Shown one piece after another: positions 12,536-30,499 of a stretch of 32,000 nucleotides of DNA (positions within the stretch are counted from its first letter, which is position 1; each line of letters begins with the position of its first letter). Source of the DNA: Vibrio alginolyticus NBRC 15630 = ATCC 17749. GTDB taxonomy: Bacteria > Pseudomonadota > Gammaproteobacteria > Enterobacterales > Vibrionaceae. The notes below the pieces were generated by a model. The model was not told the DNA's origin and did not search any database. It saw only the letters and a program-made list of their open reading frames with translations. Location of the stretch: NCBI RefSeq assembly GCF_000354175.2, contig NC_022359.1, positions 1,530,001 through 1,562,000 on the forward strand, written 5' to 3'. The position numbers were made by a program, and so were the translations under genes.

Positions 12536-14659
12536 ATGTTGAAGTCGCATTGTTTTTCTCTCATTGCACTTGCTTCTCTGAGCTTACTTTCTATACCCAA
12601 CGTTTGGAGTAGAACAGCAATCGTGTTACCTGGATTGCATGAACAGGGTATTGATCTTCAAGATAAGCCTATCTCTGCTGCGGCTACACGTGAATGGGAA
12701 CTGGATTATGCTGATATCTTATTCGGTGCTTACGAAAGTAAAAGTCATAATGAGCGTGTACAAGCACTTGGTTACATGTACAACCAAAAGCTGGAACTTA
12801 ACTCAGGTTGGCTGGAAAACGATATACGTAACCAAGCAGAACTGAATGGAATTGACTACGAAGATTTCTTTCTCCACTTTTCTGAAGACACTATCCTAGC
12901 TGAAGTCGACTCAAGCCATGGCGAGAATACTCTGCTCAATCGAAAACCGATGATTGTTGGTTATACGGCTAGTGCTGACCACGCCGGTTTTTGGCTATAT
13001 CAACCACCGCCATGGGATGCTGATGTATTCGGTCAGGCGAATAATGGTGGTGCCCTCTATGTTTATCACTCAGAGAAGTTCGACCGCTTAACCCTTACGT
13101 TTTCCCAGTTTGCTCAAGGTGGCAACTTCATAATTGAATACCCTTCTGCTATCGACTCGTTTGGTCAGGTATCGGAGTGGAAGCCCTTTGATATTAAGAA
13201 AGATAGAACACAGGGCATGACCAAAGACCAAACAGTAAACTGGTCTGTTCCTTCGGATTGGGTTCGCGCTACAACGCATGATGGTAGCGGAAAAACTTAT
13301 GGTGGCGGTCAGTACTTTGGCTCCACCTTTTTACGCGACGGCGGCCGCCTTTACTTTGCGAAAATTACTTGGCATGACGACAACATAGAAAACCGCCCAC
13401 GTCTCGAAAACATTCGACTCAAAAATAGCTTCCCTGCCGTCAACATCTCAGGAGCACCAACGGAGACACCTGAAGGTCAAACCATTCAACGCTGGCGTAA
13501 AATTCGTGGCTTCGACAAATCTGCAGATCGAAACCAAGACAATTATCTTTCTTGGAATGAATACAAAAACCGTTCGAATAAGAATGCAACGGCACGATTT
13601 CGTTGGGAGTCACGGGTTATTCCACTTGGTCGTATGTGGAATCAAACCTCTTCTTGGGCATTGACCAATCTCGGCAATCCCGTTTTTACCAATACAATGC
13701 GCCACTATTACCAAGCTGAATGGGCGAAACAAGGTTTAAATGGTGCGTACAACGACGACACGAATAAGTTACTCGGTGCAAATCAGTTCTACATATATTC
13801 CGGAGGCACAGTGGGTGAGCTTGGTTTGGTGGCGGGTAGCCAAGCTGCTGACGATGCGTACAAAGCGCAATTCTCGGCGTTCTTGAATAAACTGGCAACG
13901 CAGGATGAAGATGCGTTAATTGGCCTCAACATAGGTACGGCAAACTTATTCGGTCGTAATGGGCAAAACCACTTGGTTGACGCTGGCTCCTTGTACTTGC
14001 GCGAGCACTACCTTTTCCCTTCTACCGGCTTTAGTGGCTATGCTGGGTTAGCTAAGTTTTGGGATAACTCTGCACTCGCCAAAGCTGGCCAGAAAGTGAT
14101 TTATCAAGCGACAACGCGTTATGGTCGCGTTCAATACTTTGGGAACACAGAAGACAATTGGAAACAGGACCAATACTCTGCACTAGCAGTGTTCTACTTA
14201 AACTATCACCCTGAGCGCAGTTACTTTAATCAGTGGAACAATGGCTACTTATATGGAAGTAATAACACAACAAGTGACAACTTCTGGAAGGCAGGCGTAC
14301 CAAAGAATATTGCTTATCAACCTAGCACCTTGCTTGCCGTTGATTTGGGAGAGCCTGCCAATCAAATACCAGAGGGGTATCAGGCGACTCCGGTAATGAT
14401 GTCCACCAGCACGCCCTATCCTGCCGATTACACGGTGATTGGAGATGCTTCTATGAGCAAAGTGGCTCATCCTGACTTGCCCAATGGCGCTATCGATTTG
14501 TTACCAACCCATACGTACTTTGCGTATCACTCAGACGATACGGTGGTGGTGCATGGTCCTACGGAGATGGTGTTAGCCCGCGAATTCACTAAAGGCCGAG
14601 TGCTGTATCGGACTGATTTTTTGGCAAAAATATCGGTTACTTCTCCTCACCGAGGATAA
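12536..14659 (+). CDS. secreted protein of unknown function, possibly glycoside-hydrolase-like; 3' end apparently frameshifted
   Basis: 707-aa ORF with signal peptide MLKSHCFSLIALASLSLLSIPNVWS. An EF-hand-like loop DRNQDNYLSWNE lies at 13526-13561. I recognise no family with certainty. The reading frame appears to continue in another frame to 14769 (see findings). Confidence 0.8.
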   Translation: MLKSHCFSLIALASLSLLSIPNVWSRTAIVLPGLHEQGIDLQDKPISAAATREWELDYADILFGAYESKSHNERVQALGYMYNQKLELNSGWLENDIRNQAELNGIDYEDFFLHFSEDTILAEVDSSHGENTLLNRKPMIVGYTASADHAGFWLYQPPPWDADVFGQANNGGALYVYHSEKFDRLTLTFSQFAQGGNFIIEYPSAIDSFGQVSEWKPFDIKKDRTQGMTKDQTVNWSVPSDWVRATTHDGSGKTYGGGQYFGSTFLRDGGRLYFAKITWHDDNIENRPRLENIRLKNSFPAVNISGAPTETPEGQTIQRWRKIRGFDKSADRNQDNYLSWNEYKNRSNKNATARFRWESRVIPLGRMWNQTSSWALTNLGNPVFTNTMRHYYQAEWAKQGLNGAYNDDTNKLLGANQFYIYSGGTVGELGLVAGSQAADDAYKAQFSAFLNKLATQDEDALIGLNIGTANLFGRNGQNHLVDAGSLYLREHYLFPSTGFSGYAGLAKFWDNSALAKAGQKVIYQATTRYGRVQYFGNTEDNWKQDQYSALAVFYLNYHPERSYFNQWNNGYLYGSNNTTSDNFWKAGVPKNIAYQPSTLLAVDLGEPANQIPEGYQATPVMMSTSTPYPADYTVIGDASMSKVAHPDLPNGAIDLLPTHTYFAYHSDDTVVVHGPTEMVLAREFTKGRVLYRTDFLAKISVTSPHRG

Positions 14660-14883: not shown

Positions 14884-15906
14884 ATGACAACGACAAGGAA
14901 ATTCAGTCACATGAAGACGACACCTTCAATGCTCTCTGTTATGCTGCTCTCAGCATTATCAACTCATGCAAATGCGGATGAATGTGGAAAAATAACCATC
15001 GCGGATATGAATTGGAATTCGGCCAGCTTAATGGCGCACATCGACCAATTTGTCTTAAATGAAGGCTACCAGTGCGATGCGGAATTGATCCCTGGTGATA
15101 GCGTTCCTACGGGCACCTCTATGATTGAAAAGGGGCAGCCTGACGTTGCGCCAGAGTTATGGACAAACGGCATTAAAGAAGCACTTGATAAAGGAATTGC
15201 GGATAAACGCTTGCGCATCGCTAGTGAATCGCTTGTCAATGGTGGTGAAGAAGGGTTTTGGGTTCCCGCCTATCTGGTAAAACAGTATCCAGAACTCGCG
15301 ACGATAGAAGGCGTCATCAAGCACGCCAAACTATTTGAACACCCAGAAGATGATGACAAGTTCGCGTTTTATAGCTGCCCTGCTGGTTGGACATGCCAAA
15401 TCACCTCCGGTCACTTGTTTAATGCATTAGGGTTAAGTGAGCACGGCTTTGAGATGGTTGACCCAGGCTCTGGCGCTGCACTAGCTGGTACCATCGCCAA
15501 AGCCTATGATCGCAAAATGCCTTGGTTTGGTTACTACTGGTCACCAACACCCGTATTGGGCAAGTATGATATGGTCAAAGTGGATTTTGGTAGCGGAACG
15601 GATCTGGAAGAGTATCGCAACTGTACCACCCAGCCTGATTGTACTTCTCCCAAAGTAACAATGTACCCACCTTCTCCAGTTCGCACAGTAACAACTGAGG
15701 CATTTGCGAACAAAGAACCCCAAGCATTCGCGTACTTGCAGAAACGCGGATTTACCAACGAGCAAATGAGTGAAATGCTGGCCTGGATGGAAGATAACTA
15801 CGCGGACGGTGAAGAAGCGATGTTTTACTTCTTTAATACCTACCCTGACTTGTGGAAAGGCTGGGTATCTGAAGACGTCGCGGTGAGAATCGAAAAAGCG
15901 CTTTGA
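14884..15906 (+). CDS. glycine betaine/quaternary-amine ABC-type substrate-binding protein (OpuAC/ProX family), orphan
   Basis: Signal peptide (..MLSVMLLSALSTHANA) followed by an OpuAC-like sequence rich in Trp/Tyr (DMNWNSA, PELWTNG, FGYYWSPTP). An alternative start is ATG 14911. No permease or ATPase gene is adjacent. Confidence 0.85.
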   Translation: MTTTRKFSHMKTTPSMLSVMLLSALSTHANADECGKITIADMNWNSASLMAHIDQFVLNEGYQCDAELIPGDSVPTGTSMIEKGQPDVAPELWTNGIKEALDKGIADKRLRIASESLVNGGEEGFWVPAYLVKQYPELATIEGVIKHAKLFEHPEDDDKFAFYSCPAGWTCQITSGHLFNALGLSEHGFEMVDPGSGAALAGTIAKAYDRKMPWFGYYWSPTPVLGKYDMVKVDFGSGTDLEEYRNCTTQPDCTSPKVTMYPPSPVRTVTTEAFANKEPQAFAYLQKRGFTNEQMSEMLAWMEDNYADGEEAMFYFFNTYPDLWKGWVSEDVAVRIEKAL

Positions 15907-15939
15907 TGATTAATACTTCGAGTGCCACAAATCATTTAA

Positions 15940-15973
15940 CCTCCCATACCGTTTGAATAAACGGCATGGGAGG
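15940..15973. terminator. long hairpin between convergent binding-protein and SnoaL-like genes
   Basis: CCTCCCATACCGTTT (15940-15954) pairs with AAACGGCATGGGAGG (15959-15973): 15 bp with one mismatch and a GAAT loop. T-tracts are poor on both sides. Confidence 0.55.
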
Positions 15974-15988
15974 CTAATCAACGACTCG

Positions 15989-16366
15989 TTAATACATGGT
16001 GTGACCATTCAATGTTTCTTTGGGTATCTCTTGCAGAGCGTCCCAATGTTCAACGATCTTCCCATTGTGATCAAAACGAAAGAAATCCATCGTCACGTAT
16101 TCAATATCATTAGGCCATGTTTGGTGAGTGTGTAGTGCCACCAAATTCCCTTCAGCAATGGCTCGCACAAACGTAATATCTTTATCGGGATACTCATTTT
16201 GCATCCGCTCAAAATACTCGATAAAAGCCTCGGGGCCATTTCCAACTAATGGATTGTGCTGGATGTACTCATCACCTACGTAGTCTTCAACTGCCTTTCT
16301 TGGGTTACCTCTATAGGCGGTTTCGTAAAACGCAATGGCATTTCTTTTATTCTCTTGCAGATCCAT
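15989..16366 (-). CDS. SnoaL-like / NTF2-fold family protein
   Basis: The ORF track starts at 16495. ATG 16366 gives a 125-aa protein, MDLQENKRNAIAFYETAY...HTHQTW...FFRFDHNGKIVEHWD, typical of the SnoaL/NTF2-like fold. Confidence 0.8.
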   Translation of the reverse strand: MDLQENKRNAIAFYETAYRGNPRKAVEDYVGDEYIQHNPLVGNGPEAFIEYFERMQNEYPDKDITFVRAIAEGNLVALHTHQTWPNDIEYVTMDFFRFDHNGKIVEHWDALQEIPKETLNGHTMY

Positions 16367-16445
16367 TTTTCTTACCTGTGTTGCTCCATCTTGCGGATAA
16401 CGGTAATCATAGTCTTTGAACTTCAGAAGTGACTGAACATCGCGC

Positions 16446-16474
16446 ACAAAAAAGGCCGCTAAACAGCAGCCTTC
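16446..16474 (-). terminator. intrinsic terminator ending the RidA-to-243-aa operon
   Basis: On the minus strand, AAGGCTGCT-GTTT-AGCGGCCTT (one internal mismatch) is followed by TTTTTTGTG. It starts 35 nt downstream of the stop at 16509. Confidence 0.75.
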
Positions 16475-16508
16475 ATCACTTCTACTTGGAATCATCGCCT
16501 TTCATAGC

Positions 16509-17240
16509 TTAAACCACACCACCAGCACCGAGCATAGAACGCTCACTGTTCTCCACCAGCAACGCGGTTGCGGTTTGTTTCAGTGTTTCCCATTCTTGGT
16601 CTTCGACAAAGATACCATTTTGCCAAGAAGCTTGTTGCGTACGGCTTAACTCATCGCCTTCAATGTGGGTGGTATATCCTTGTGCACTTTTCTCGATATC
16701 GAAATCGTTCACGGAGAGCTCGATAACCATACTATGCAAATCCGTATCATGCCCATCAAACTGATCCGAGAAAAAGACTTCTGGCGCGATTCGTCCACGG
16801 TTTAACACATAAAGCGTTCGCTTGGGACTAGAGCCATTGACCCATTGTGCACGGCACGCAATGCCTTTTGCAGAGAGCTTCAACAACTCACTAAAACCTA
16901 GCCAACGGTTATGACACTGTTTCAACGTAACGGTAATCGACTTACGGTTGATCATTTTCTCGAGCGCGAAATCCAACACCGCGGGTAAATGACACGCTAC
17001 ACTCCCGTTGTGCAGTTCTACCTCTATGCTTGACGGCGTACTGTTGGTCACCGATACGGCGCAGTCTGAATCTAACCCAAGAAACAGACTGGCGTTATTA
17101 AAATGACGAACTCCATGTAAGCCAACCATTTGCAAGTCCGCCACCATGTTCGCAATGACATCCGCCTCACCACAGTGACGGCGCATGCCAAGAAATGCCT
17201 TATTAACCGCGGCCACCAATTCGTTGTGAGAGACGATCAT
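16509..17240 (-). CDS. hypothetical protein, 243 aa (no family recognised)
   Basis: Long ORF with an ATG start and GGAGG 9 nt upstream. ATGA overlap with the stop of the upstream 578-aa gene. No signal peptide, TM segment or cofactor motif seen. Confidence 0.85.
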   Translation of the reverse strand: MIVSHNELVAAVNKAFLGMRRHCGEADVIANMVADLQMVGLHGVRHFNNASLFLGLDSDCAVSVTNSTPSSIEVELHNGSVACHLPAVLDFALEKMINRKSITVTLKQCHNRWLGFSELLKLSAKGIACRAQWVNGSSPKRTLYVLNRGRIAPEVFFSDQFDGHDTDLHSMVIELSVNDFDIEKSAQGYTTHIEGDELSRTQQASWQNGIFVEDQEWETLKQTATALLVENSERSMLGAGGVV

Positions 17241-18973
17241 AATGCAAATCCTCCACTGATTTTTTGATTGTCACTTTGCGCAATTTCGTCACGTGGCGGC
17301 ATGCTAGGGAAAATCCATGTGTCTGCCAGTTTAGGGTCGTGAATTTCATCTAACAACGGCGCACCTTGGAAGAAAGTTACTCGAACCCAACGATCCGAGC
17401 GCGGATCAAACTTAGTCGCGCCAAAGATCGCCAATTTACAGCGCAGTAAGTGCATTGGTAACGCATCTTTACGCAGCACATTCATTTGAATATCCCCCAT
17501 CGCACGGTTGCCTAGCGTCCATACGCGACGTGTGATCGAACGATAAGCCGGTTTTTGCAATAGAAACTCTGCTACGGACATTTCTACATCACAGTCAAGC
17601 AAGGCCTGGTACAAGCGATTCACTTGTCTGCCGATATCAAGCGGCAGTTCTTTTTCTTCTCCAGCCTCTTCCCCGCGAACACCAAGCCTTGGCTCTTCTT
17701 TATCTTGTGAGCGATACCAGAACCAGTAGTTGTTCTCGGCTAGTGAGTAATCCGCATCAATCGCCCAGCGGTACTTGCTTTGCAACACTTCCAGTAAATC
17801 TTGGATCTTTTTCCCGCCCGGAATAGATAACGTTTCATCCGTATTCATTTGGCTAGCAAATTCATCCACTAAAGATGGGTAGAGTTCGATCAAGCAAGAG
17901 GTGAGGATTTCTTGGGCCTCCACACTCATTGTTTTCTTATGCTCGACCAAACTCGCCCAATTCGGATGTGATGCCATTAACGTTGTTAGCTCTGATAGCA
18001 GTTGTTTGATGTCTGCTATCGCTTGATGATTGAGCCTGTCTTGATGTTCATTGATGGTGATGACTTGCTCTAAATGACGCTGTGCTTTTTGCAGCAATCC
18101 TTGCAAAGGAGCATGGAATGAAGCTTCACATGGCATCGCAAAGACTCGCGCTACCGCACGTTCGCGAGAGGTCATCCATTGGTCAACGATGCACGGGTGA
18201 TGAATCAAGTATGGAGCCATGCCTAAGCCAGTCGCATTGCCGACACCAAGGTAGCGCTGCAAGCCACGATGCAAAGCCACCGCCTTGTCGCCACCTTGTT
18301 GAAGTGCCAGATAGTGCACCCAATCTAGGCTGAATTCACGCAACATATATACGGCACACATTTGCGCACTAAAAGACTGGCTGAAATCTGAGTTGTTCTC
18401 TAACAGTTTGAAATCGGCGATACCAAACTTTCCGTTACCATAAACAGCTGTGGTACGCAGGATATAACCCACTTCCGCTAACTCTTTCGGCTCAGGCTGC
18501 TCGCCTTGAGAAAGCGCGCTAACAATGTGCTCAAACACGCGCACACTTTTGTTTGCGCGAGCAAGAACAAGTACGTTGTTTGGATTACGTCCCGCTTCTT
18601 GCAGCGGTACATTTTCTCGCAATCTTTCCAACAAAGTAACATCAACATCGCCTTGAAACAGTGCAAATGTGACGTCCCACTTTTCAGCAATTACGCGATC
18701 ATTACGCTCGTCGTCGGCAATTTCATCACAGAATACCACCAAATGATAAACGTGCTCTGGCGTGGTCAATTTGTAAATCACATGACCATAACCACGAGGA
18801 CAAAGCTGCCACTCATGCTTGGTTACTTGCCAGTTTTGGCTTGCCATATTACGAATCAGACTGCGAACAAAGCTGATTCGGTTTTGGTGCATTGCGCCAA
18901 GCCTTTCGGCTGCCATGACAATCGCTGCATCGCGCATAGTTGCTTCCGTATAAGTAGAACGATGTGCATCCAT
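17237..18973 (-). CDS. hypothetical protein, 578 aa (no family recognised)
   Basis: Long ORF. The ORF track starts at GTG 18985; ATG 18973 has AGGTGGT 7 nt upstream. It appears soluble, with no P-loop, Rossmann or Cys-cluster motif. Confidence 0.85.
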   Translation of the reverse strand: MDAHRSTYTEATMRDAAIVMAAERLGAMHQNRISFVRSLIRNMASQNWQVTKHEWQLCPRGYGHVIYKLTTPEHVYHLVVFCDEIADDERNDRVIAEKWDVTFALFQGDVDVTLLERLRENVPLQEAGRNPNNVLVLARANKSVRVFEHIVSALSQGEQPEPKELAEVGYILRTTAVYGNGKFGIADFKLLENNSDFSQSFSAQMCAVYMLREFSLDWVHYLALQQGGDKAVALHRGLQRYLGVGNATGLGMAPYLIHHPCIVDQWMTSRERAVARVFAMPCEASFHAPLQGLLQKAQRHLEQVITINEHQDRLNHQAIADIKQLLSELTTLMASHPNWASLVEHKKTMSVEAQEILTSCLIELYPSLVDEFASQMNTDETLSIPGGKKIQDLLEVLQSKYRWAIDADYSLAENNYWFWYRSQDKEEPRLGVRGEEAGEEKELPLDIGRQVNRLYQALLDCDVEMSVAEFLLQKPAYRSITRRVWTLGNRAMGDIQMNVLRKDALPMHLLRCKLAIFGATKFDPRSDRWVRVTFFQGAPLLDEIHDPKLADTWIFPSMPPRDEIAQSDNQKISGGFAL

Positions 18974-19074
18974 TTTGCTCACCACCTATTTGTTATTGTA
19001 AGAATACTAGGGTTTGTGCGGATGCAGGAGGAAAACACCCGCACAAGCTCCACGTTGTTTGAATTAGATAATTG

Positions 19075-20676
19075 TTATAGCCCTTGCTCTTTCGCCATTT
19101 TGATTGCGATTTGCGGCGCATTCCAAAGTGACGGTAACAGAATCAACGAAACCGGAACCGCGGTAATCACAATGAAAGATTGCAGTGCAGAGATGCCACC
19201 AGAGCCAAGAGAAATCAGGATCAATGCCGTCACACCCATCATTACTCCCCAGAAGGTACGGATGATCGCATTCGGCTCCGTTTCACCACTGATCACGACA
19301 CTGATTGTGTAGGTCATTGAGTCGCCCGTCGTGACGATGAAGATCGTGGTTAAAATCAGAAATAGAATTGAAGTCAGCATTGGCATTGGTAGTTGCTGAG
19401 TCACCGCAAGCAAAGCACCTGGCAGGTTAAAGCCTTCGAACGCCGCACTCACGCTACCCGGTTCAGCAATTTCAAACGCAAGACCTGAGCCGCCCACAAT
19501 CGTGAACCAAAAACAGGTGGTTAACGGAGCCACAATACTGATGGTGGAAATAACTTGGCGAATAGTTCGACCACGGGAAATACGCGCAATAAAGATTGCC
19601 ATCATCGGACCATAACCCAGGAACCAGCCCCAGAAAAATACTGTCCACCAACTTAGCCAACCTTCGTCACCGCGATAAGTCGCCATTGGGATAAAGTTAT
19701 CCAACATGCTTCCTACACCTTGAATGTATCCGTTAAAGATAAAATTCGTAGGGCCAAAAAACAGGATGTAAACCATCAATGCCATTGCCAGAATCACGTT
19801 GTAACGACTAAGCAGTTGCATGCCTCGGCTTAATCCACTGAGTGCTGACAAGGTGTAAAGAGCAATCGCAAACAAGATGATGATAAGCTGAGTGGTAAAG
19901 CCATCAGGAATATCAAACAGCGCATTTAACGCGTAGCTAACCTGCAAGCCTAGAAACCCAATTGGCCCGATGGTGCCTGCGGCTACCGCGATAATGCAGC
20001 ACGCGTCAATCAATGCACCGAGTTGGCCTTTAAGTGCTCGTTCGCCCAAGACTGGGTAAAGCAAAATACGGGGTTTTAGTGGTAAACCTTTGTCGTAATG
20101 CAGGTGCATCACCACGATCGAAGTTAAGCTACCTACAATCGCCCAAGCCAGAAAGCCCCAGTGCATAAAGGATTGCGACAACGCATTCACCGCACCTTGC
20201 TGCGGGTTATCTTGCGCGCCGTATAAAGGGGGTGGGCTAACATAGTGTGCGATAGGCTCAGCCGCGGCCCAGAAAACGCCACCACCAGCCAATAAGGTAC
20301 AGAAAATAATCGCCATCCAGCGGAAAGAATCCATTTCTGGTTTTGCAATCCCGCCCAACATCACCTTGCCTGTTCGCCCTGCAGCCAAGCCAAGACCAAT
20401 AAGAAAAGTGAGAAGCAGCAGTAACTGCCAGTATGGACCAAACACCTGAACTGCCCAGCTAAAACCGGCGTTAACGATCGTAGATAACAGCTCGCCGTCA
20501 TAAAGTGCAATAGCAACGAACAACGCGATGAAACCACCGCTATACCAAAAGGCCGGGTTATTCAGTCCTAATTTGTCCATCGTGTTTTCTGTTGTTGATG
20601 TGTTGTGTTTTACTTTTGACTTGCCCGATGACACGCTCATCGTGGAAGCTTTCATGCTATTGGTTAAATCAGACAT
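19075..20676 (-). CDS. BCCT family (betaine/carnitine/choline-type) transporter
   Basis: About 12 TM segments and the BCCT signature region WLSWWTVFFWGWFLGYGPMMAIFIARISRGRTIRQ. The start is uncertain: ATG 20676 has GGAG 8 nt upstream, the ORF track uses TTG 20709, and ATG 20580 is also possible. Confidence 0.9.
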   Translation of the reverse strand: MSDLTNSMKASTMSVSSGKSKVKHNTSTTENTMDKLGLNNPAFWYSGGFIALFVAIALYDGELLSTIVNAGFSWAVQVFGPYWQLLLLLTFLIGLGLAAGRTGKVMLGGIAKPEMDSFRWMAIIFCTLLAGGGVFWAAAEPIAHYVSPPPLYGAQDNPQQGAVNALSQSFMHWGFLAWAIVGSLTSIVVMHLHYDKGLPLKPRILLYPVLGERALKGQLGALIDACCIIAVAAGTIGPIGFLGLQVSYALNALFDIPDGFTTQLIIILFAIALYTLSALSGLSRGMQLLSRYNVILAMALMVYILFFGPTNFIFNGYIQGVGSMLDNFIPMATYRGDEGWLSWWTVFFWGWFLGYGPMMAIFIARISRGRTIRQVISTISIVAPLTTCFWFTIVGGSGLAFEIAEPGSVSAAFEGFNLPGALLAVTQQLPMPMLTSILFLILTTIFIVTTGDSMTYTISVVISGETEPNAIIRTFWGVMMGVTALILISLGSGGISALQSFIVITAVPVSLILLPSLWNAPQIAIKMAKEQGL

Positions 20677-20785
20677 ACTCTGGCTCCAGAGGTTCTTTGC
20701 AGCAGCCAAAGACTGGCTACAAATGTGAGTTTTACGCCTGCCGTATTGTTATTATGTGGGCAGGCGGTTCCTACTTTGGGGAATG

Positions 20786-21775
20786 CTATGAAATAGGCTC
20801 TAATCCTTCTTTAAGGAAGTTGAACCAGTTTTCACCCAATATTTTTCCAGCCTCAGATTCACTGAATCCGTGATCCATTAATCCGTTGTAGATGTTCTCC
20901 ATCCCTGCGCTGCCGCAGAACCATGGCAGCGCATCTGGCCATCCCGAGTTACTTGCTGAACCTTCGCCGTAATCCATCGCTTTTGACCAACGCCCGTTGC
21001 GCATCCACTCCAACACTTGTTGCGGCTGATTTAGGCACAAATCGCTACCGATACCTAAATGCTCAACGCCAAACATGTCTGCGGTTTTCGCAACCATCTG
21101 GCAGAAATCATCCAACGTGCACTGGCTGCCATTTGGCAAATGGAACGGATATAAACTGAATCCAATCAAACCACCGCGCTCCGTCAGTGCTTTGATCACG
21201 GTGTTAGACTTGTTGCGCAGTGCGTCATGCGCAAACGTCGGGTTAGCATGGCTGATACAAATTGGACGCGAAGAAAGATCGATGGCTTCCAACGTCGAAC
21301 GCTCTGCACTGTGGGACATATCAATGATCATCCCGACTCGGTTCATCTCTTCAATCGCTTGCTTACCAAAGCGAGTTACGCCGGAATCGTTTTGTTCGTA
21401 ACAACCTGTCGCCAGTAAGCTTTGGTTGTTGTAGGTCAGTTGCATGATCAGCAGACCTTGGCGGCGCATCACTTCAATCAGACCAATTTCATCATCGATA
21501 GGTGAGCAATTTTGCGCGCCGAAGAAGATGCCGACTTTGCCTTCTGCTTTGGCTTTTTCTACATCTGCCATTGAATAAATAGGCATGATGAGGTCCGCAT
21601 TTTGCTCGAAGCGCAAGTTCCATTCAGCAAAACGCGTTAAGGTTTCGCGCGCAGTTTCGTGGTAGACGATGGTGGCATGAACGGCGGTAATGCCACTCGC
21701 CTTAAGCGTTTGGAAATACTCTCGATCCCAATTGCAGTACTGCAATCCGTCAATCACAATCCGTTGTTGGTACAT
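20786..21775 (-). CDS. peptidase M19 (renal dipeptidase)-like protein with a degenerate metal site
   Basis: Collinear with my recollection of DPEP1: IIDMSHSA, CISHANP..LRN and LGIGSD are retained, but VIDGHND reads VIDGLQY. The ORF track starts at GTG 21781. ATG 21775 has AAGGAG 5 nt upstream. Confidence 0.88.
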   Translation of the reverse strand: MYQQRIVIDGLQYCNWDREYFQTLKASGITAVHATIVYHETARETLTRFAEWNLRFEQNADLIMPIYSMADVEKAKAEGKVGIFFGAQNCSPIDDEIGLIEVMRRQGLLIMQLTYNNQSLLATGCYEQNDSGVTRFGKQAIEEMNRVGMIIDMSHSAERSTLEAIDLSSRPICISHANPTFAHDALRNKSNTVIKALTERGGLIGFSLYPFHLPNGSQCTLDDFCQMVAKTADMFGVEHLGIGSDLCLNQPQQVLEWMRNGRWSKAMDYGEGSASNSGWPDALPWFCGSAGMENIYNGLMDHGFSESEAGKILGENWFNFLKEGLEPIS

Positions 21776-21844
21776 AACCACTCCTTAAACAATTTCTTAG
21801 CCTTTCAGTGCGGGTAACTGACACCATCAGCTACCCTGCTGTTC

Positions 21845-23305
21845 TTAGTAAGGGCGCTGATAAGCGGTTTTCACCACGGTGTAGAACTCTTTGGCGTACT
21901 GCCCTTGCTCACGAGGGCCAAAGCTAGATTCTTTACGGCCACCAAATGGGACGTGATAATCTGTACCCGCAGTTGGCAAGTTAACCATGACGCAGCCCGT
22001 TTGGACTTGCTGTTTGAAGATCGCGCTATTGCGCAGACTTTGCGTGATAATGCCGCCTGTCAGGCCAAAGCGCGTATCGTTCGCGACTGCAATTGCCTCA
22101 TCCAGATCAGAAACGCGAATCACGCTTGCCATTGGTGCAAAGACTTCTTCTTGGTTCACTTCCCAGCTGTTTTGTGTGTTCAAGAACAGGGTTGGTGACA
22201 TATAGTAACCGTCATGCTCTAGGCTCAGACGCTCACCACCGAAAGCCAGCTCCGCGCCTGCTTGGCGTGCGTTTTCGATCCACTCAAAGTTCGCATTCAG
22301 CTGGTTACCATCAACAACAGGGCCCATGAATACGCCCTCTTCTAGAGCGTGACCCACTTTAAGTTCGCTCATGCGTTTGATTAGCGCTTCAACATACGCG
22401 TCGTGAATTCCGTCCATAACCACAAGACGAGAAGACGCGGTGCACTTTTGACCCGCACCCGAGAATGAGCCTGCGATTGTCGCTTCGACAGCAATTTGAA
22501 TATCTGCATCATCTGCCACTACGAGCGCGTTTTTGCTGCCCATCTCTAGCTGACAACGTACAAAGTTTGGTGCCGTAGCCGCTGCAACTTTACGGCCTGT
22601 GTCCACAGAACCAGTGAAGCTCACGCCGTTCACATCCTTCGAATTGATAAGGGTATTACCGACTTGCGAACCGCTACCCAAAACGAGGTTAAACGTGCCA
22701 GCAGGTAAACCTTGGCGATGGATAATCTCTGTCAGCGCAACGGCACTTGCTGGGGTTAGGTTGGCAGGCTTCCAGACGACGCTGTTGCCAAACGCAAGTG
22801 CTGGCGCGATTTTCCAAGCCGCTGTTGCTGTTGGGAAGTTCCAAGGAGAGATAATGGCGATAACGCCGACGGCTTCGCGAGTAACTTCAACGGAGACACC
22901 TGGACGGACGGAAGCAGCGCTATCGCCAATTTGACGCAGAACCTCAGCAGCAAAGTATTGGAAGAATTGGCCAGCACGGTAAATCTCACCTCGACCTTCA
23001 GAAAATGGCTTACCTTCTTCACGCGAAAGCAAGGTGCCCAATTCGTCACATCGTGCAATGAGCTCATCACCAATCGCTTGTAGCACTGCTTGCTTGCGCT
23101 CGATTGGTGTTTTTTCCCACTCTGGCTGCGCTGATTTAGCCGCTTGAATCGCTTGCTCTACTTGCGACACACTCGCTTGTGCGAAATCGCCAATGTTTTC
23201 GCTGATATCAGAAGGGTTAATATTGGCGATGGTGTCCATGCCCGATTGCCACTCACCCGCTATATAGAGGGATTTTTCTGCTTGAACATTGTTAATAAAA
23301 GTCAT
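21845..23305 (-). CDS. NAD(P)-dependent aldehyde dehydrogenase
   Basis: ALDH superfamily with general-base Glu motif LEMGSKNA and catalytic Cys motif GQKCTASSR. The ORF track starts at 23353. ATG 23305 (MTFINNV) has AAGGAAAG upstream. Confidence 0.92.
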   Translation of the reverse strand: MTFINNVQAEKSLYIAGEWQSGMDTIANINPSDISENIGDFAQASVSQVEQAIQAAKSAQPEWEKTPIERKQAVLQAIGDELIARCDELGTLLSREEGKPFSEGRGEIYRAGQFFQYFAAEVLRQIGDSAASVRPGVSVEVTREAVGVIAIISPWNFPTATAAWKIAPALAFGNSVVWKPANLTPASAVALTEIIHRQGLPAGTFNLVLGSGSQVGNTLINSKDVNGVSFTGSVDTGRKVAAATAPNFVRCQLEMGSKNALVVADDADIQIAVEATIAGSFSGAGQKCTASSRLVVMDGIHDAYVEALIKRMSELKVGHALEEGVFMGPVVDGNQLNANFEWIENARQAGAELAFGGERLSLEHDGYYMSPTLFLNTQNSWEVNQEEVFAPMASVIRVSDLDEAIAVANDTRFGLTGGIITQSLRNSAIFKQQVQTGCVMVNLPTAGTDYHVPFGGRKESSFGPREQGQYAKEFYTVVKTAYQRPY

Positions 23306-23378
23306 GGTTCTTTCCTTGTTCTTCCGATTTGTGATGGCAAGCCACTCACTCACTGATCTCTAATTATTCTCGTTGGAT

Positions 23379-23777
23379 TTATTCTGGTTGGCTTGCCGAC
23401 GCGTAGACAACAAACTCCACCAACATCTCTTCTCGCGCTAACCCTGCAACCACCATGGCGGCGCGATTTGGGTACGGCGCTTCAAAATATTCCGCGTACA
23501 CTTGGTTAACGGTCTTTAAGTATTCTCTGTCAGTCACATAAATCAGGACCTGCAACACCGAGTCCAAAGACTCCCCTGCACACTCCAGGGTGTGAATGAG
23601 ATTGTTAAAGGTTTGACGTGTTTGTGCTTCGATACCGCCTTCCACAACCGCGCCTGTGTCATCAATAGGAATTTGAGCCGTATACAGGGTTCCGTTGTTG
23701 ACTATCGCCCATTCAAGCGGCGCTTTAGAAGCAAATAGACTGGTTTTAACTGGGTGTTTTTTAGTAGGAGTATTCAC
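23379..23777 (-). CDS. RidA/YjgF/TdcF family (enamine/imine deaminase-like) protein
   Basis: 132 aa with a GTG start. YjgF-fold sequence (GTLYTAQIPID..G.VVEGGIEAQTRQTFNNL) retaining the Arg of the PxR motif (YPNRAAMVV). Confidence 0.85.
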   Translation of the reverse strand: MNTPTKKHPVKTSLFASKAPLEWAIVNNGTLYTAQIPIDDTGAVVEGGIEAQTRQTFNNLIHTLECAGESLDSVLQVLIYVTDREYLKTVNQVYAEYFEAPYPNRAAMVVAGLAREEMLVEFVVYASASQPE

Positions 23778-23868
23778 GTGCCTTTCAACCTTTGTAACAG
23801 CTTTGTTTCAATATGGTTAAATGATGCACATTGACAAGCGATAAATCTAACGGTAAATTTTTGACATT

Positions 23869-23932: not shown

Positions 23933-24823
23933 ATGAGTATTAAGCTTCAACAATTAATGCATTTTGTGATGGTAGTCGAGGAAGGAGGCTTTCGAGCCGC
24001 TTCACATCGTGCAAATCGTTCTCAGGCGGCACTGTCAACATCGATAAAAGAGCTTGAAAAAATTCTAGGGCAAACGCTGTTTGAACCCGGAAACAAAACC
24101 AAATTGACCCCGTTTGGTGAAATTTGTCTTCCCAAAGTGGTTCAGTTTCTCAATATCTACAGTGCACTAGACAACGATCTCAAAGCAGCCGCTGCCGGAC
24201 AGCAAGGGAGAGTGCGAATTGCGAGCGTTCCTTCTGTTGCAGCAAAGCTCATTCCTAGCGTGTTGGGCGCCTTTTGCGAACAGTATCCAAATGTAGAAGT
24301 AAGCTTGATAGACGATAATGCCGCTGGTGTCGAGGCTCGCCTACTCTCCGGTGAGGTCGACTTAGCGCTCGGTAACCCCTCTCACCTCGATGAGGGCGGC
24401 ATTGACTTTACGCCGCTGTTAGCTGATCCAATAGGCGTGGTGTGTTTAAAGGACAACCCTATTGCGAGTCATCCAGAAGGAGTCGAGTGGCAAACTTTGT
24501 TGGAACAACCCTTTATCCGTAACGGCACTTGTACACTTCTCGATCCAACCCCAGCAAGAGCTCTGAGTCAGCAAGCGCTCTATTCGGTCGAAAATATTAC
24601 TTCGCTGTTTTCTGTCTTAGAACTTGGGATTGGTGTCACGACCCTACCGAAGCTTGCTTTCCCAACCAATGAAACACGCTTGGTTTGGATTCCGCTTATC
24701 GATCCACCACTTGAAAGGCAAATTGGTATATTTACGTTAACCGATCGCACGATCTCGCCTCAAGCTAAAGCATTTCACGATCTTTGTGTGCATTATTTAA
24801 ACTATCAAAAAGAAGATAAATAA
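23933..24823 (+). CDS. LysR-family transcriptional regulator, divergent from the BCCT operon
   Basis: wHTH motif FRAASHRANRSQAALSTSIKELEKILG followed by a LysR effector-binding domain. Confidence 0.9.
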   Translation: MSIKLQQLMHFVMVVEEGGFRAASHRANRSQAALSTSIKELEKILGQTLFEPGNKTKLTPFGEICLPKVVQFLNIYSALDNDLKAAAAGQQGRVRIASVPSVAAKLIPSVLGAFCEQYPNVEVSLIDDNAAGVEARLLSGEVDLALGNPSHLDEGGIDFTPLLADPIGVVCLKDNPIASHPEGVEWQTLLEQPFIRNGTCTLLDPTPARALSQQALYSVENITSLFSVLELGIGVTTLPKLAFPTNETRLVWIPLIDPPLERQIGIFTLTDRTISPQAKAFHDLCVHYLNYQKEDK

Positions 24824-24903: not shown

Positions 24904-26010
24904 CTATTTTTTGCGACGATTTCGGTTCTTATACACCACGCAAAAGTTACCACGCTTGGTACGACACTTTGAGCAACGCTCACAATCTACTGGTGCGCGA
25001 TTGCCTTCTTTCCAACGTTTGATCAACTGTGGCTCAGCCAATAAAGGGCGTGACACAGCAAAAAACTGGATATCTGTGTTTTCTGCAATTTTCTCAATCG
25101 CATCAATGTCGCTCAGCCCGCCGACAGTAATCACCGGTATACTAACGTCCTGACTGATCACGTGACCATATTCGTGAAAGTAACCTTCTTCTTGTAGTGT
25201 GTAACCATCGAACGTTTGACCAACAAGTTCGTTTGCTTTGCCGTGAACATTGCCAGATACGATGATCGCATCAACGCCTATTTCTTCAAGTTTCTTACAG
25301 ACGACGCGAGTTTCATCGAACGTTAAACCGCCGTCAAAGAACTCTGTTGCCGTCAGTTTAACGAGGATGGGAAATTCGCTTCCAACCAGCTTTCTGGTTT
25401 CAGAATAAATTTCTAAAAGAAAGCGCATGCGATTTTCTAAGTCACCACCATATTCGTCTTCGCGACGATTATAGTACGGGCTTAAAAACTGGTTAATTAA
25501 ATAAGTGTGCGCCGCATGAATCTCTACGCCGTCAAAACCAGCGTCTTGAGCACGTTTGCTCGCCAATGCGAATGCCTTTACGATGTAGTCTATTTCGTCC
25601 TTTGTCATCGCTTTGCCTTGCGTATTTGTACCACGCTCAGGCACGTCACTCGGAGCGAAGATGACACGCTCACCGACGTTATGGGTGGTTTTGGTGCCAC
25701 CGTAAGCAATTTGCATCACGATTTTAGAATCTTGTTGATGTACTAGCTCTGTTAGCTTTTTGTATTCTTCAATAAAAGAGTCGTTGTAGATCCCCATCAT
25801 ACCTGCGTTGGGTTTCTCTTCTTCAACGATATTGGCATAACCTGTAACAATAAGCCCAACTTCCCCTTTCGCAAGCGTTTCGTAAATATCGTAAAGCTTT
25901 GCCGTCATGTGACCATCTTCGGTCGCCATGTTCTCCCACGTTGCGCTTCGCACAAAACGGTTCTTTAGGGTCATGTTGCCAATGCGGGCTTCGGAAAACA
26001 AAATGCTCAA
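24904..26010 (-). CDS. NADH:flavin oxidoreductase, Old Yellow Enzyme family, with C-terminal Cys cluster
   Basis: OYE TIM-barrel sequence (LFSEARIGNMTLKNRFVRSAT, GFDGVEIHAAHTYLINQFLSP). C-terminal CERCSKCRTKRGNFC. TTG start with AAGAGGA 6 nt upstream. Confidence 0.9.
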   Translation of the reverse strand: MSILFSEARIGNMTLKNRFVRSATWENMATEDGHMTAKLYDIYETLAKGEVGLIVTGYANIVEEEKPNAGMMGIYNDSFIEEYKKLTELVHQQDSKIVMQIAYGGTKTTHNVGERVIFAPSDVPERGTNTQGKAMTKDEIDYIVKAFALASKRAQDAGFDGVEIHAAHTYLINQFLSPYYNRREDEYGGDLENRMRFLLEIYSETRKLVGSEFPILVKLTATEFFDGGLTFDETRVVCKKLEEIGVDAIIVSGNVHGKANELVGQTFDGYTLQEEGYFHEYGHVISQDVSIPVITVGGLSDIDAIEKIAENTDIQFFAVSRPLLAEPQLIKRWKEGNRAPVDCERCSKCRTKRGNFCVVYKNRNRRKK

Positions 26011-26679: not shown

Positions 26680-27546
26680 TTACAGAGCTAGAGGAATCAA
26701 CTCGACACCAAGCACACCACTGATCCCCATCACCACTAGCAGTGAGACTTTAAACACCGACTTTGACCAAGCGATGTAGTTGTTGTCATCAATGCTGCGA
26801 AAGGTCACTTTCGTCCACATAAAGCAAACAACCGCTGCAACCGCTAAGTATTCATACCCGGCTTCACCTAGTAAAAATAACCCCAACGATACTGCTCCAA
26901 ACGCCACGACATACGCTTTCATGTGTCGATGCGCTTTATGAATACCTTCTTTAACTGGCAATACGGGAATCCCGGCTTCTCGGTAGTCTTGCATGCGAAA
27001 CATGGCAATGGCATACGAGTGCGGCATTTGCCAGAGACAGAACATGGTAAAGAGTAAAATCGCTTCCAAGCTAATGAAGTTTGTTACCGCTAAGTAACCC
27101 ACCAATGGCGGAACTGCACCTGAGATACTTCCCACTAAGGTCCCATACACCGAGTTACGTTTATACCACATCGTGTAAAAGAACACGTAATACACGTAGC
27201 CAAGCAACACGACGACAGCGGATAGTGGGTTCACTCGGATAAATAACAGTGCGGTTCCTACCAGCAATAAAGCAAGTGCATAAACAAACGCAATATCGAT
27301 ATTGATGTTGCCTTTCACTGTTTCACGATTTCGTGTACGTGCCATCTTTTGGTCGATATCACGATCGAAAATATTATTCACCACACAACCTGAAGCGATG
27401 ACTAACCCAACACCAACTAACGTCGTAACGAACAACATTAGACTGGCTGGTTCTGTTTTTGCGGCGAGGAAGAACCCCGCCGCAACAGAAATCAGGTTGC
27501 CGAAAATAATGCCCGGTTTAGTGATAGACAAATAACTTTTCAGCAT
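26680..27546 (-). CDS. cyoE: protoheme IX farnesyltransferase (heme O synthase)
   Basis: UbiA-family polytopic membrane protein (NNIFDRDIDQKMARTRNR motif) and last gene of the cyo operon. The ORF track starts at 27657. ATG 27546 (MLKSYLSITKPGI) matches the usual CyoE N-terminus. Confidence 0.9.
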   Translation of the reverse strand: MLKSYLSITKPGIIFGNLISVAAGFFLAAKTEPASLMLFVTTLVGVGLVIASGCVVNNIFDRDIDQKMARTRNRETVKGNINIDIAFVYALALLLVGTALLFIRVNPLSAVVVLLGYVYYVFFYTMWYKRNSVYGTLVGSISGAVPPLVGYLAVTNFISLEAILLFTMFCLWQMPHSYAIAMFRMQDYREAGIPVLPVKEGIHKAHRHMKAYVVAFGAVSLGLFLLGEAGYEYLAVAAVVCFMWTKVTFRSIDDNNYIAWSKSVFKVSLLVVMGISGVLGVELIPLAL

Positions 27547-27554
27547 ACCTTGAC

Positions 27555-27866
27555 CTACAACTTCATGTTGACGTTCATGTTGTAGATGATCCATACCGAG
27601 CCAGCGATAAGGATAAGTACAACAATGGCGGTAAACATCAGTGATACAAGGTTCCAACGTCCGTCGGATGTTTTTGTTTCCATGTGCAAGAAGTATTTAA
27701 AGTGAACAAATATCTGCACTAATGCACATCCAAATAGAATCGCATAGGTCGTTGTATCTGGTAATGATTTCGTCCAAACAAAGTAGAACGGAATTACCGT
27801 CAGAATCAGTGAGGCAATAAAGCCTTTCACGTAATCTGACGAACTGGTTTCTACATGTTGATCCAT
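27555..27866 (-). CDS. cyoD: cytochrome bo3 ubiquinol oxidase subunit IV
   Basis: 103 aa with three TM segments. Its start overlaps the cyoC stop (TAATG). The ORF track starts at 27911. Confidence 0.87.
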   Translation of the reverse strand: MDQHVETSSSDYVKGFIASLILTVIPFYFVWTKSLPDTTTYAILFGCALVQIFVHFKYFLHMETKTSDGRWNLVSLMFTAIVVLILIAGSVWIIYNMNVNMKL

Positions 27867-28468
27867 TACATTACCCCCAGTAAGTAAACGATGGTAAAGA
27901 CACAAATCCAAACGATATCTAGAAAGTGCCAGAATAGGCTTAAGCAGTTAAAGCGCATTGCCATATTGTCGTTTAGACCTTTCGTCGACAGTTGATGGTA
28001 CGCTACCGCTAACCAAATCAGACCAAAGGTTACGTGCAGGCCGTGCGTACCAACCAACGTAAAGAATGCCGACAGGAATGCACTTGTTTGTGGGCCATAG
28101 CCTTCTTCAATCAGGTGATGGAACTCATAGACCTCCATACAGATAAAGCCAAGACCAAGCGCGAACGTGACTAACATCCAACGTTTGAGACCAGCAACGT
28201 TGTTGCGCTTCATCGCGATAATGCCAAAACCAAATGTGATACTGCTAAACAGCAGCAGCATGGTTTCGACAAAAACGAATGGAAGTTCGAAAATGTCTTT
28301 ACCTGTTGGGCCCGCAATTGAATTGCTCGACAGCACAGCGTAAGTCGCGAACAAGGTCGCAAACAGTACACAGTCACTCATCAGGTAAACCCAGAAACCA
28401 AATAGCTTGTTGCCATTCGTGTCATGGTGGTGATCATGGTCGTGATGTGCTGCGATATTAGTTTGCAT
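27866..28468 (-). CDS. cyoC: cytochrome bo3 ubiquinol oxidase subunit III
   Basis: 200 aa. His-rich N-terminus followed by [24 protein letters not shown], closely matching my recollection of E. coli CyoC. Confidence 0.92.
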
Positions 28469-30494
28469 ACGTCACCTCCAGATCATCTTTACTTTCGCTG
28501 TCTTTCACTGAGTTTTTCTTCGCTTCTTCAAGCTGAGCTCGACGTTCGGCCTCAATTGCTTTGATCTCTTCAACTTCCACGTAGTAATCCACATCATCGT
28601 TATAGCTATGCTGAATACACGTCACGATAATACCGACCAAACTTGCCGCCGCTAGCCACCAGATGTACCAAATCATGCCGAAGCCAAATAGGAGCGACCA
28701 AGCCGACACGTAGATGCCTGTTGCAGTGTTTTTTGGCATATGAATACGTTCGTATTCCACTTCTTTAGTTGGATCGAACTCGCCACTTTGTTTCTGGTAC
28801 CAGAAGGCATCCAGCACATCACCTTTTGGTAGGTGCGCAAAGTTGTAGAACGGCGGTGGAGACGATGTTGCCCACTCAAGAGTACGTCCACCCCACGGGT
28901 CACCAGTTAAATCACGGTTTTGCTCGCGGTCACGGATACTCACGTAAATTTGGATGAACTGAGACAATACGCCCAGCGCAATCACAACCGTACCTGCTGC
29001 GGCAATCGACAACAGTGGGAAGTATTCTGGGTTGATGTCTTGGCTTAAACGACGAGTCATCCCCATAAAGCCCAGCGCGTAAAGCGGTAAGAACGCCATT
29101 AAGAAACCAATAATCCAAAGATAGAACGCGCGTTTGCCCCAAGTTTCATTCATGGTGAAACCGGTCGCTTTCGGGAACCAGTAAGTGATCGCAGCGAAAC
29201 ATCCAAACACCACACCACCAATGATTACGTTATGGAAGTGAGCGATAAGGAATACTGAGTTATGCAGAACGAAATCTGCGCCCGGAACAGCCATTAGTAC
29301 GCCCGTCATACCACCAACAGTAAAGGTGATAAGGAAGCCCACCGTCCACATCATTGGCGTCGTAAAGCGGATGCGGCCTTTGTACATCGTGAATAGCCAG
29401 TTGAAGATCTTCACCCCTGTTGGGATAGAAATGATCATCGTGGCAATACCGAAGAAGGCATTTACGTTCGCGCCAGACCCCATCGTAAAGAAGTGGTGTA
29501 GCCAAACGACAAAGGCAAGAATCGTGATAACTACGGTAGCCCAAACTAGCGATGTGTAACCGAACAACTTTTTACGTGAGAAGGTTGCGGTGACTTCTGA
29601 GAACACACCAAAAATTGGCAAGATCAAAATGTACACTTCTGGGTGACCCCAAGCCCAAATCAGGTTGACGTACATCATTACGTTGCCGCCAAGATCATTG
29701 GTAAAGAAGTGCATGCCTAGGTATCTATCCAGCGTAAGCAGAGCGATAGTCACCGTTAGGATTGGGAATGAAATGATGATCAAAATGTTTGCACACAGAG
29801 ACGCCCAAGTGAAAACTGGCATCTTCATCATTGGCATAGACGGTGTACGCATACGCAAAATGGTCGCGAAGAAGTTCACGCCTGTTAACGTCGTACCAAC
29901 ACCTGATATCTGCAGCGCCCAAATCCAATAGTCGACCCCGACTCCTGGGCTAGCCTCAATACCTGAAAGCGGCGGATACGCCAACCAGCCGGTACGACCA
30001 AATTCACCTAAGCCGAGAGACATGTTTGTTAGGATGACACCTACAACAAACAGCCAGAAGCTCAAGTTATTCAGATACGGGAAAGCTACGTCACGCGCAC
30101 CAATCTGCAATGGCACGATGATGTTCATCAGACCAATGACCAATGGCATCGCTACAAAAAAGATCATGATCACGCCGTGGGCAGTAAAAATTTGATCGTA
30201 GTGATGCGGTGGCAAGTAACCTGCTTCACCCGCAGAAGAAAGGAGTTGCTGACTACGCATCATGACTGCGTCAGCAAAACCACGAACAAGCATCACCATC
30301 GCTACTGCGATGTACATGAAGCCAAGTTTTTTATGGTCTACTGAAGTAAACCATTCATTCCACAAATATTGCCACTTTCCGGCTTTGGTCACCGCGTAAA
30401 CTACGGCTAAACCAACCAGCGCCACAACCGCTAGGGTGATGACGATAATAGGTTCGTGGAATGGAACTGAATCAAGAGTTAATCTTCCAAACAT
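28458..30494 (-). CDS. cyoB: cytochrome bo3 ubiquinol oxidase subunit I
   Basis: 678-aa heme-copper oxidase subunit I ([41 protein letters not shown]). Confidence 0.96.
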
Positions 30495-30499
30495 TACGA

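Follow-up and report, generated by a model that had tools for sequence, protein, structure and literature searches.

A conserved subfamily of M19 dipeptidase homologues with a non-canonical active site, encoded beside X582 and DUF3726 in an operon of Vibrio alginolyticus

We analysed a stretch of 32,000 nucleotides from Vibrio alginolyticus NBRC 15630 = ATCC 17749 (NCBI RefSeq assembly GCF_000354175.2, contig NC_022359.1, positions 1,530,001 to 1,562,000 of the forward strand), referred to here as the window, with coordinates counted from its first letter. An operon on the minus strand has the gene order RidA-ALDH-M19L-BCCT-X582-DUF3726-SnoaL-like, ALDH being an aldehyde dehydrogenase, and a gene for a LysR-type regulator diverges from it. 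The subject of this report is M19L (20786-21775, minus strand), an M19-like protein of 329 amino acids that matches Pfam PF01244 Peptidase_M19. Its open reading frame (ORF) begins with ATG, with an alternative GTG start at 21781, and its closest database match, 99% identical, is from V. alginolyticus. The genes for M19L, for an orphan protein that we call X582 and for a DUF3726 protein lie on the same strand, adjacent or near-adjacent; we refer to this arrangement as the module, a name that, like M19L, X582 and the Q-Y-H-H-R-D subfamily, was coined in this analysis.

Both sequence and fold place M19L among the M19 triosephosphate isomerase (TIM) barrels. Residues 17-323 match positions 35-319 of the 319 positions of the Pfam profile (E=2e-70), and an AlphaFold2 (AF2) model built with an alignment reached a predicted local distance difference test (pLDDT) score of 95, against 39 for a single-sequence model. 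The model superposes on three canonical M19 enzymes, human renal dipeptidase DPEP1 (PDB 1itq), Streptomyces Sco3058 (3id7) and GliJ (5lwz), over the whole barrel, with template-modelling (TM) scores of 0.79-0.83. In M19L an insertion of about 35-40 residues follows strand beta-8 (residues ~247-285) relative to the canonical enzymes. The protein has no signal peptide, its N-terminus leading directly into strand beta-1, and by these features M19L is a predicted cytoplasmic relative of renal dipeptidase; the label "membrane dipeptidase" that it carries is therefore inherited from the mammalian ectoenzyme.

In the human enzyme, His20, Asp22 and Glu125 bind the first zinc ion, and Glu125, His198 and His219 the second (PMC9305348). 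We paired these residues with those of M19L by two routes. A 41-member family profile searched against all PDB sequences aligned to Sco3058, GliJ and human DPEP1 with E-values of 1e-50 to 1e-59, and hhalign aligned the family with three canonical, plasmid-borne bacterial M19 sequences at E=3e-54. Both routes gave the same result: Gln88 pairs with the bridging Glu125 (canonical motif GAEGGH), Tyr115 with His152 (LTHN), His155 with His198 (DLSH), His176 with His219 (FSHS), Arg187 with Arg230 (PRN) and Asp245 with Asp288 (GGD/GSD). Three of the five zinc ligands are thus missing from M19L, with Leu11, Tyr13 and Gln88 in their place, and two, His155 and His176, are kept. Because E125Q is the only exchange of Glu125 that leaves the human enzyme active (PMC9305348), a Gln at the bridging position is compatible with a single metal.

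The His-x-Asp position, now Leu11 and Tyr13, is the one weak point of the pairing. Neither MAFFT nor BLOSUM local alignment nor hhalign pairs strand beta-1 of M19L with the canonical HND strand, and local aligners stop short of it because in the canonical enzymes the strand is directly followed by about 18 additional residues. The apparent equivalence of VIDG-LQY to (L/V)(I/F)DG-HND rests on motif anchor and structure rather than on a scored local alignment: the two share the IDG anchor, AF2 places a strand at residues 8-12, and the barrels superpose with a TM score of about 0.8. No other His or Asp occurs near the strand end, in residues 10-16. A previous reading made from the sequence alone, without database searches (the sequence-only reading), had described M19L by eye as an M19 homologue collinear with DPEP1 that had lost the first-site and bridging ligands and kept the second-site and substrate-binding motifs, and had asked whether the missing ligands were merely shifted. 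All of its motif pairings proved right, and the formal alignments found no shifted ligand.

The pattern is not peculiar to V. alginolyticus. When 1.84 billion cluster representatives were searched exhaustively with HMMER, 9,720 matched at E<=1e-3 and 561 at E<=1e-30, and we counted residues in the 103 full-length sequences among the top 150 matches, which are representatives of 50%-identity clusters. Gln was present at position 88 in 99/103 of these, Tyr at position 115 in 99/103, His at positions 155 and 176 in 101/103 and 102/103, Arg at position 187 in 100/103 and Asp at position 245 in 98/103. Position 11 is Leu in 66/103 and His in only one sequence, which also keeps Glu; position 13 is variable. 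M19L carries this Q-Y-H-H-R-D signature in full, with Gln at the bridging position, Tyr at that of His152, no His-x-Asp and the His, His, Arg and Asp retained, and by its sequence it is to be regarded as a member of a conserved subfamily and not as a decayed copy. From the family-wide invariance, and from the occurrence of the signature in the solved structure 2i5g described below, it follows that the subfamily is old, large and under selection for a specific non-canonical active site. We consider it well founded that the residue pattern is under strong selection and that M19L is predicted not to be a conventional binuclear dipeptidase, as the sequence-only reading had thought.

X582 (17237-18985, minus strand; 582-amino-acid ORF) belongs to a conserved family of about 570-580 residues, and its true start is probably the ATG at 18973. 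The protein has no Pfam match (E<=10; Pfam was also run on 23 members) and no NCBIfam match, and nothing credible came from a profile search against the PDB or from hhalign against the Ldh_2 and M19 profiles. A family search gave 7,868 matches, of which the named ones are hypothetical or uncharacterised proteins, bar one automatic UniRef label. The family is nevertheless marked by strongly conserved, Arg/Gly-rich motifs with invariant polar residues (DRVIA..WD, RAN.S.R, GY..RTTAVYG.GK.G, G.GN.TGLGMAP, EPR and FDP.S..W), and of everything in the window X582 is perhaps the most novel. The DUF3726 protein (16509-17240, minus strand; 243 amino acids; Pfam PF12525, E=1.4e-15) starts within X582, its start overlapping the X582 stop by 4 bp both here and in Phaeobacter, which would be consistent with translational coupling. 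Its N-terminal ~135 residues, including a His-Gly motif, align with the family of DpkA-like proteins (hhalign probability 84%, E=7e-6), and this part is, on that alignment, a remote homologue of the N-terminal domain found in dehydrogenases of the Ldh_2/DpkA type. The accessory Ldh_2 protein found at related loci has its closest PDB match in 1wtj, which is DpkA, a delta-1-piperideine-2-carboxylate reductase (E=7e-60); DpkA has an additional N-methyl-amino-acid dehydrogenase activity. As of June 2026, no NCBIfam model names or claims M19L, X582 or the DUF3726 protein, and neither NCBIfam nor the open-access papers searched yielded a description of the function of the subfamily, of X582 or of the trio that they form with DUF3726.

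The other genes of the operon point towards the metabolism of amines. The first encodes a RidA-family imine/enamine deaminase (23379-23777, minus strand; Pfam Ribonuc_L-PSP, E=7e-23); hydrolysis of 2-imino/enamine acids is the established function of this family. Immediately upstream of M19L is the NAD(P)-dependent ALDH (21845-23353, minus strand; Pfam Aldedh, E=2e-151), whose nearest NCBIfam models are 2-oxoglutarate-semialdehyde dehydrogenases, below cut-off, and whose best PDB match is 3ty7, a putative ALDH, followed with similar scores by succinate-semialdehyde and betaine-aldehyde dehydrogenases. Between M19L and X582 sits a BCCT transporter (19075-20709, minus strand; Pfam E=8e-150) with an altered trimethylammonium-binding aromatic box: Tyr is replaced by Val in transmembrane helix 4, and WWxxW by WFxxY in transmembrane helix 8. 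This suggests, from the residues of the box, a substrate other than glycine betaine. The same kind of alteration is found in BCCT4/7 of V. natriegens, which did not import glycine betaine, dimethylglycine, sarcosine, ectoine, dimethylsulfoniopropionate (DMSP) or proline, their expression being unverified (PMC12093977).

The transcription unit ends with a SnoaL-like protein gene (15989-16495, minus strand), directly followed by a terminator-like hairpin with a 19-bp stem (15936-15977, minus strand), which is likely to mark the end of a seven-gene operon. At its other end the LysR-type regulator (23933-24823, plus strand) is orthologous across 27-29 loci, and a consensus scan found divergent promoter-like sites at 23810-23859, those for the operon on the minus strand at 23837-23810 and those for LysR on the plus strand at 23831-23859. 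Beside the LysR gene lies a short Old-Yellow-Enzyme-type flavin oxidoreductase (24904-26010, minus strand; 368 amino acids), which resembles only the N-terminal half of DgcA/StcD-type demethylases. Beyond the hairpin, a solitary OpuAC-type substrate-binding protein (14884-15906, plus strand), with no permease or ATPase genes adjoining, is about 40% identical to OpuAC proteins encoded a few kb from the trio in three SAR11 loci (L042, L045 and L055). A 707-amino-acid protein (12536-14659, plus strand) with a signal-peptide-like N-terminus and no Pfam match was found in no related locus, and the SnoaL-like, Old-Yellow-Enzyme-type and 707-amino-acid genes showed no conservation with the module in the loci compared. 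Housekeeping genes of ordinary kinds make up the flanks: at 26680-31426 (minus strand) an operon for a cytochrome bo3-type quinol oxidase with a UbiA-family prenyltransferase gene, and at 111-5071 genes for branched-chain 2-oxoacid dehydrogenase E1-beta and E2, electron-transfer flavoprotein (ETF) alpha subunit and ETF-ubiquinone oxidoreductase.

A scan of one genome per species gave 80 loci with M19-like proteins 54-95% identical to M19L, and their neighbours were determined by ORF clustering and tblastn. The carriers include Vibrio, Photobacterium, Psychrobacter, Marinomonas, Marinobacter, Halomonas, Pseudoalteromonas, Pseudomonas and Caballeronia, together with 14 Pelagibacteraceae (SAR11), 3 SAR116, many roseobacters and other Alphaproteobacteria, and 2 Acidimicrobiales. 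An X582 homologue adjoins the M19-like gene on the same strand in 71/77 assessable loci, 69 of them with full-length X582 and 2 with X582 cut by a contig end. The remaining loci comprise one with an X582 fragment only, five without X582 despite adequate flanks, and three that could not be assessed; the M19-like genes of the five are 54-57% identical to M19L, and one of them (L076) adjoins PqiABC and glycerate-kinase-like genes. DUF3726 was found in 48/80 loci, with a divergent equivalent in SAR116, ALDH in 38, the same LysR as in the window in 29, BCCT in 23, the DpkA-like Ldh_2 protein in 21, RidA (by tblastn) and SoxB in 15 each, SoxA in 12 and OpuAC in 8. The commonest gene order is ALDH > M19L > (BCCT) > X582 > DUF3726 > (DpkA-like). 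In Phaeobacter inhibens the module has soxBDAG on one side and a DMGDH-like/Rieske cluster on the other. On plasmid pPGA1_262 of P. inhibens DSM 17395, a frameshift splits the DpkA-like gene that lies downstream of DUF3726 (L096, 12333-13405), and the gene table omits it; the gene may be a pseudogene, in an organism much used as a model.

The trio is also kept where the M19-like protein is only 33-42% identical to M19L (L003, L097, L100, L102 and L104), with a different order, regulator and transporter. At L003 a TauA-type ATP-binding cassette (ABC) transporter and a thiamine pyrophosphate enzyme precede X582-M19L-Ldh_2-like-ALDH-RidA, the X582 being 31% identical (E=5e-92); at L100 a LysR gene is followed by ALDH-X582-M19L-244aa-RidA and a major facilitator superfamily transporter; at L104 a Dpp-type ABC transporter lies beside IclR-X582-230aa-M19L. 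L102 and Sinorhizobium meliloti pSymB share the order IclR-X582-~240aa-M19L followed by a PotF-type ABC transporter, and in the S. meliloti version a class-III aminotransferase, an ALDH and two RidA genes come after. In S. meliloti ml28 pSymB (L098, 1438-2900) the ALDH between aminotransferase and RidA is spread over two overlapping frames and has no entry in the gene table, owing either to a frameshift or to a sequencing error. RidA recurs in four of these independently arranged distant versions.

A sister clade of the trio-linked proteins occurs in dimethylglycine (dgc) operons. Trio-linked proteins are 33-99% identical to M19L overall; in the comparison that gave 31-33% for 2i5g and the Ralstonia dgc homologue, those included were 41-99% identical. 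In Ralstonia the 2i5g-type gene lies in a glyA-M19L-(DUF5943-V4R)-dgcA-dgcB-etfAB cluster. The same arrangement, written "pepD-hp-dgcAB-fixAB", has been described in V. natriegens and P. aeruginosa without a functional test (PMC12093977), and a transposon mutant of PA5396 behaves like dgc mutants (PMC13492115). In P0143, a metagenomic representative of 511 amino acids, an M19-like domain is naturally joined to DUF5943 and V4R domains in one protein; the dgc operon encodes the corresponding parts separately, as PA5396 and PA5397. The window is not of the dgc type, with X582, DUF3726, BCCT, ALDH and RidA in place of DUF5943-V4R, dgcA, dgcB and etfAB. Other neighbours of subfamily members are an Amino_oxidase flavoprotein, a DAO-family oxidoreductase, a hydantoinase A/B fusion and a peptide transporter. 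Amine-oxidising flavoenzymes thus stand near subfamily members in several forms: DgcA/DgcB, the Amino_oxidase protein, the DAO protein and the SoxBDAG or DMGDH-like gene.

We suggest, with a probability of about 0.5, that M19L is a catalytically competent, cytoplasmic M19/amidohydrolase barrel that has lost the alpha metal, is not a dipeptidase and works in a three-protein unit for the catabolism of C-N compounds. Our best reading is that of a C-N hydrolase with one metal or none, acting with two partners, X582 and the DUF3726 protein, on an imported carboxylate-bearing amine. The three proteins may form a complex, embedded in a LysR-controlled operon for the uptake and breakdown of a carboxylate-bearing N-substituted compound, which would be a betaine-type osmolyte in the window and a polyamine-, taurine- or peptide-like solute in the distant versions. 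Within the active site, Arg187 would clamp the substrate carboxylate and Asp245 would shuttle a proton, with His155, His176 and Gln88 holding one metal at most or polarising the substrate directly. Since the residues for the alpha metal, for bridging the hydroxide and for polarising the carbonyl are lost, the site suits substrates that do not depend on metal-generated hydroxide, and M19L might cleave a C-N bond in a species resembling a dehydropeptide, an imine or a carbinolamine, for example by carbinolamine collapse, iminium hydration or hydrolysis of a dehydropeptide-like N-acyl enamine. A 2-imino/enamine acid so formed could pass to RidA or to the DpkA-like reductase, and an aldehyde could be oxidised by the adjacent ALDH. 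The recurrence of RidA, ALDH, amine-oxidising flavoenzymes and imine-directed enzymes argues for such chemistry, by way of an imine, enamine or carbinolamine, on a carboxylate-bearing amine. How the labour is divided within the trio is a guess.

Several observations weigh against this proposal. The X582 family alignment shows neither a conserved Cys nor any recognisable cofactor motif, and the operon contains no obvious oxidant able to make an imine from a quaternary amine. Five loci (L076, L062, L044, L031 and L063) have no X582 within 10 kb, the remainder of these genomes not having been checked, and the SAR11 trio is found without adjacent ALDH or RidA genes. The V. natriegens BCCTs with the same altered box took up none of the six osmolytes and so say nothing positive about the substrate (PMC12093977). 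RidA, which the sequence-only reading had picked out as a suggestive companion, does recur among the close loci and in the distant arrangements, but only a minority of the close loci have it. The idea from the same reading that the substrate could be an osmolyte-derived amide is a reasonable conjecture. What lies beyond that reading is the subfamily-wide signature with its solved structure, the X582 and DUF3726 neighbours, and the dgc sister clade.

We went through a number of compounds as substrates, and none of ectoine, creatine, carnitine/gamma-butyrobetaine, DMSP, choline, homarine/trigonelline, opines and gamma-glutamylmethylamide fits all contexts. A bolder proposal, which we put forward tentatively and think somewhat less likely than not, is that the trio is a new three-component, redox-cofactor-poor, C-N-cleaving enzyme that employs a metal-depleted dipeptidase barrel to degrade an abundant marine nitrogenous osmolyte in SAR11, SAR116, roseobacters and vibrios, with variants for polyamine-, taurine- and peptide-like solutes in soil bacteria. 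Candidates for the osmolyte are a homoserine-, beta-alanine- or hydroxyproline-type betaine, or a related N-alkyl amino acid.

Unlikely on balance, yet to be taken seriously, above all for the S. meliloti version, where an aminotransferase gene follows, is the reading of M19L as a classical hydrolase of amides or amidines whose one metal, at the beta site, is held by Gln88, His155 and His176. It would act on an N-acyl or cyclic-amidine amino acid of the ectoine, N-acetyl-diaminobutyrate or N-acyl-omega-amine type, and the freed amine would be converted to an aldehyde and oxidised. Mononuclear beta-site amidohydrolases such as E. coli NagA exist, the carboxylate clamp and general base are kept in M19L, and the aminotransferase, ALDH and RidA of S. 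meliloti mirror the downstream half of the Doe ectoine pathway; however, several carrier genera, such as roseobacters and Sinorhizobium, already carry canonical ectoine genes, and an aminotransferase is missing from the Vibrio, roseobacter and SAR11 versions. The tolerance of E125Q by the human enzyme (PMC9305348) speaks for a single metal, but the carbonyl-polarising His152 is Tyr throughout the subfamily, and an enzyme of this kind would leave the need for X582 and DUF3726 unexplained.

A little less probable again is a non-catalytic role, in which M19L would bind a ligand or present a substrate to X582/DUF3726 (in the sister clade, to DgcAB), much as PvdM, an M19 homologue without a zinc site, acts non-hydrolytically (PMC9305348). 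PvdM (3b40) is among the fold matches of M19L, three of the five ligands are gone, the sister clade is fused to the small-molecule-binding V4R domain, and partner proteins always stand beside M19L. PvdM differs, however, in being periplasmic and in keeping only His219 and a hydrophobic residue at the bridging position, and the invariance of Asp245, both His, Arg187, Gln88 and Tyr115, at 95-99% among clusters no more than 50% identical, exceeds what a binding role usually demands. That M19L is an ordinary binuclear zinc dipeptidase with its ligands displaced in sequence, as the database label would have it, is effectively excluded. Some relatives have an "LHxD" upstream of beta-1 that MAFFT aligns to GHND; we rejected this pairing: in these barrels the ligands are located at the C-terminal strand ends, the motif lies ahead of the strand, and M19L has no His or Asp there (MYQQR). 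The near-universal Gln for Glu and contexts of amine and osmolyte catabolism rather than peptide use argue against a dipeptidase as well.

The annotation "membrane dipeptidase", which is found in thousands of genomes, is almost certainly wrong for this subfamily. M19L marks instead a compact, widely transferred module, one core protein of which, X582, is without a curated family or solved structure. The module lies within islands for the catabolism of betaine, sarcosine and methylamine in the heterotrophs that are most abundant in the ocean, and the sister clade inside the dimethylglycine operon of Pseudomonas and Vibrio. Knowing the substrate would supply a missing piece of marine carbon-nitrogen cycling and of osmolyte turnover, add a new catalytic solution with one metal or none to the amidohydrolase superfamily, and give a function to two families, X582 and DUF3726.

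Among known systems, the closest solved structure to M19L is PDB 2i5g, a P. aeruginosa "amidohydrolase" deposited as an unpublished structural-genomics entry in 2006. The two folds agree with a TM score of 0.93 and a root-mean-square deviation of 1.6 Å, both proteins are cytoplasmic and about 325 amino acids long, and 2i5g shares the signature (VIDGL.., GFQNAH, CYNTQ, DLSH, YSH, PRN and GTD). It differs in its 33% identity and in the insertion after strand beta-8, and its clade sits in dgc operons and not beside X582 and DUF3726. Judging from the organism, the length (978 bp) and the context of the clade, and with no exact match, 2i5g is probably PA5396, the first gene of the dgc operon. The canonical M19 enzymes have in common with M19L the collinear TIM-barrel amidohydrolase fold, the beta-site His pair, the Arg for the substrate carboxylate and the strand-8 Asp. 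In M19L, by contrast, His-x-Asp, the bridging Glu and His152 are replaced and about 18 residues after beta-1 are deleted, the protein is neither secreted nor membrane-anchored, and its genomic context is not related to peptides.

The loss of zinc ligands in an M19 homologue has precedent. Human DPEP3 (6vgo) is a fold match to M19L with substituted active-site residues, and its 2020 structure paper reportedly found no dipeptidase activity; its substitutions are others than those of M19L, it is eukaryotic and anchored by glycosylphosphatidylinositol, and it has no conserved alternative catalytic signature. In other families of the amidohydrolase superfamily, E. coli NagA, with a beta-site metal only, and the lactonase LigI, which is metal-free, are barrels that hydrolyse their substrates by means of the strand-8 Asp and histidines, so that hydrolysis with one metal or none has precedent too. 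For M19L these are functional analogies only, a LigI-like entry (4i6k) being a weak fold match to the model. PvdM, which takes part in pyoverdine maturation, resembles M19L as an M19 barrel without a binuclear site that works alongside another enzyme (PMC9305348). It is tied, however, to TonB-dependent uptake and to PvdP, and M19L has the features of another kind of protein: no signal peptide, Gln at the bridging position and a conserved His, His, Arg and Asp. Set beside these systems, the three-protein module of M19L, X582 and DUF3726 could be a new enzyme system.

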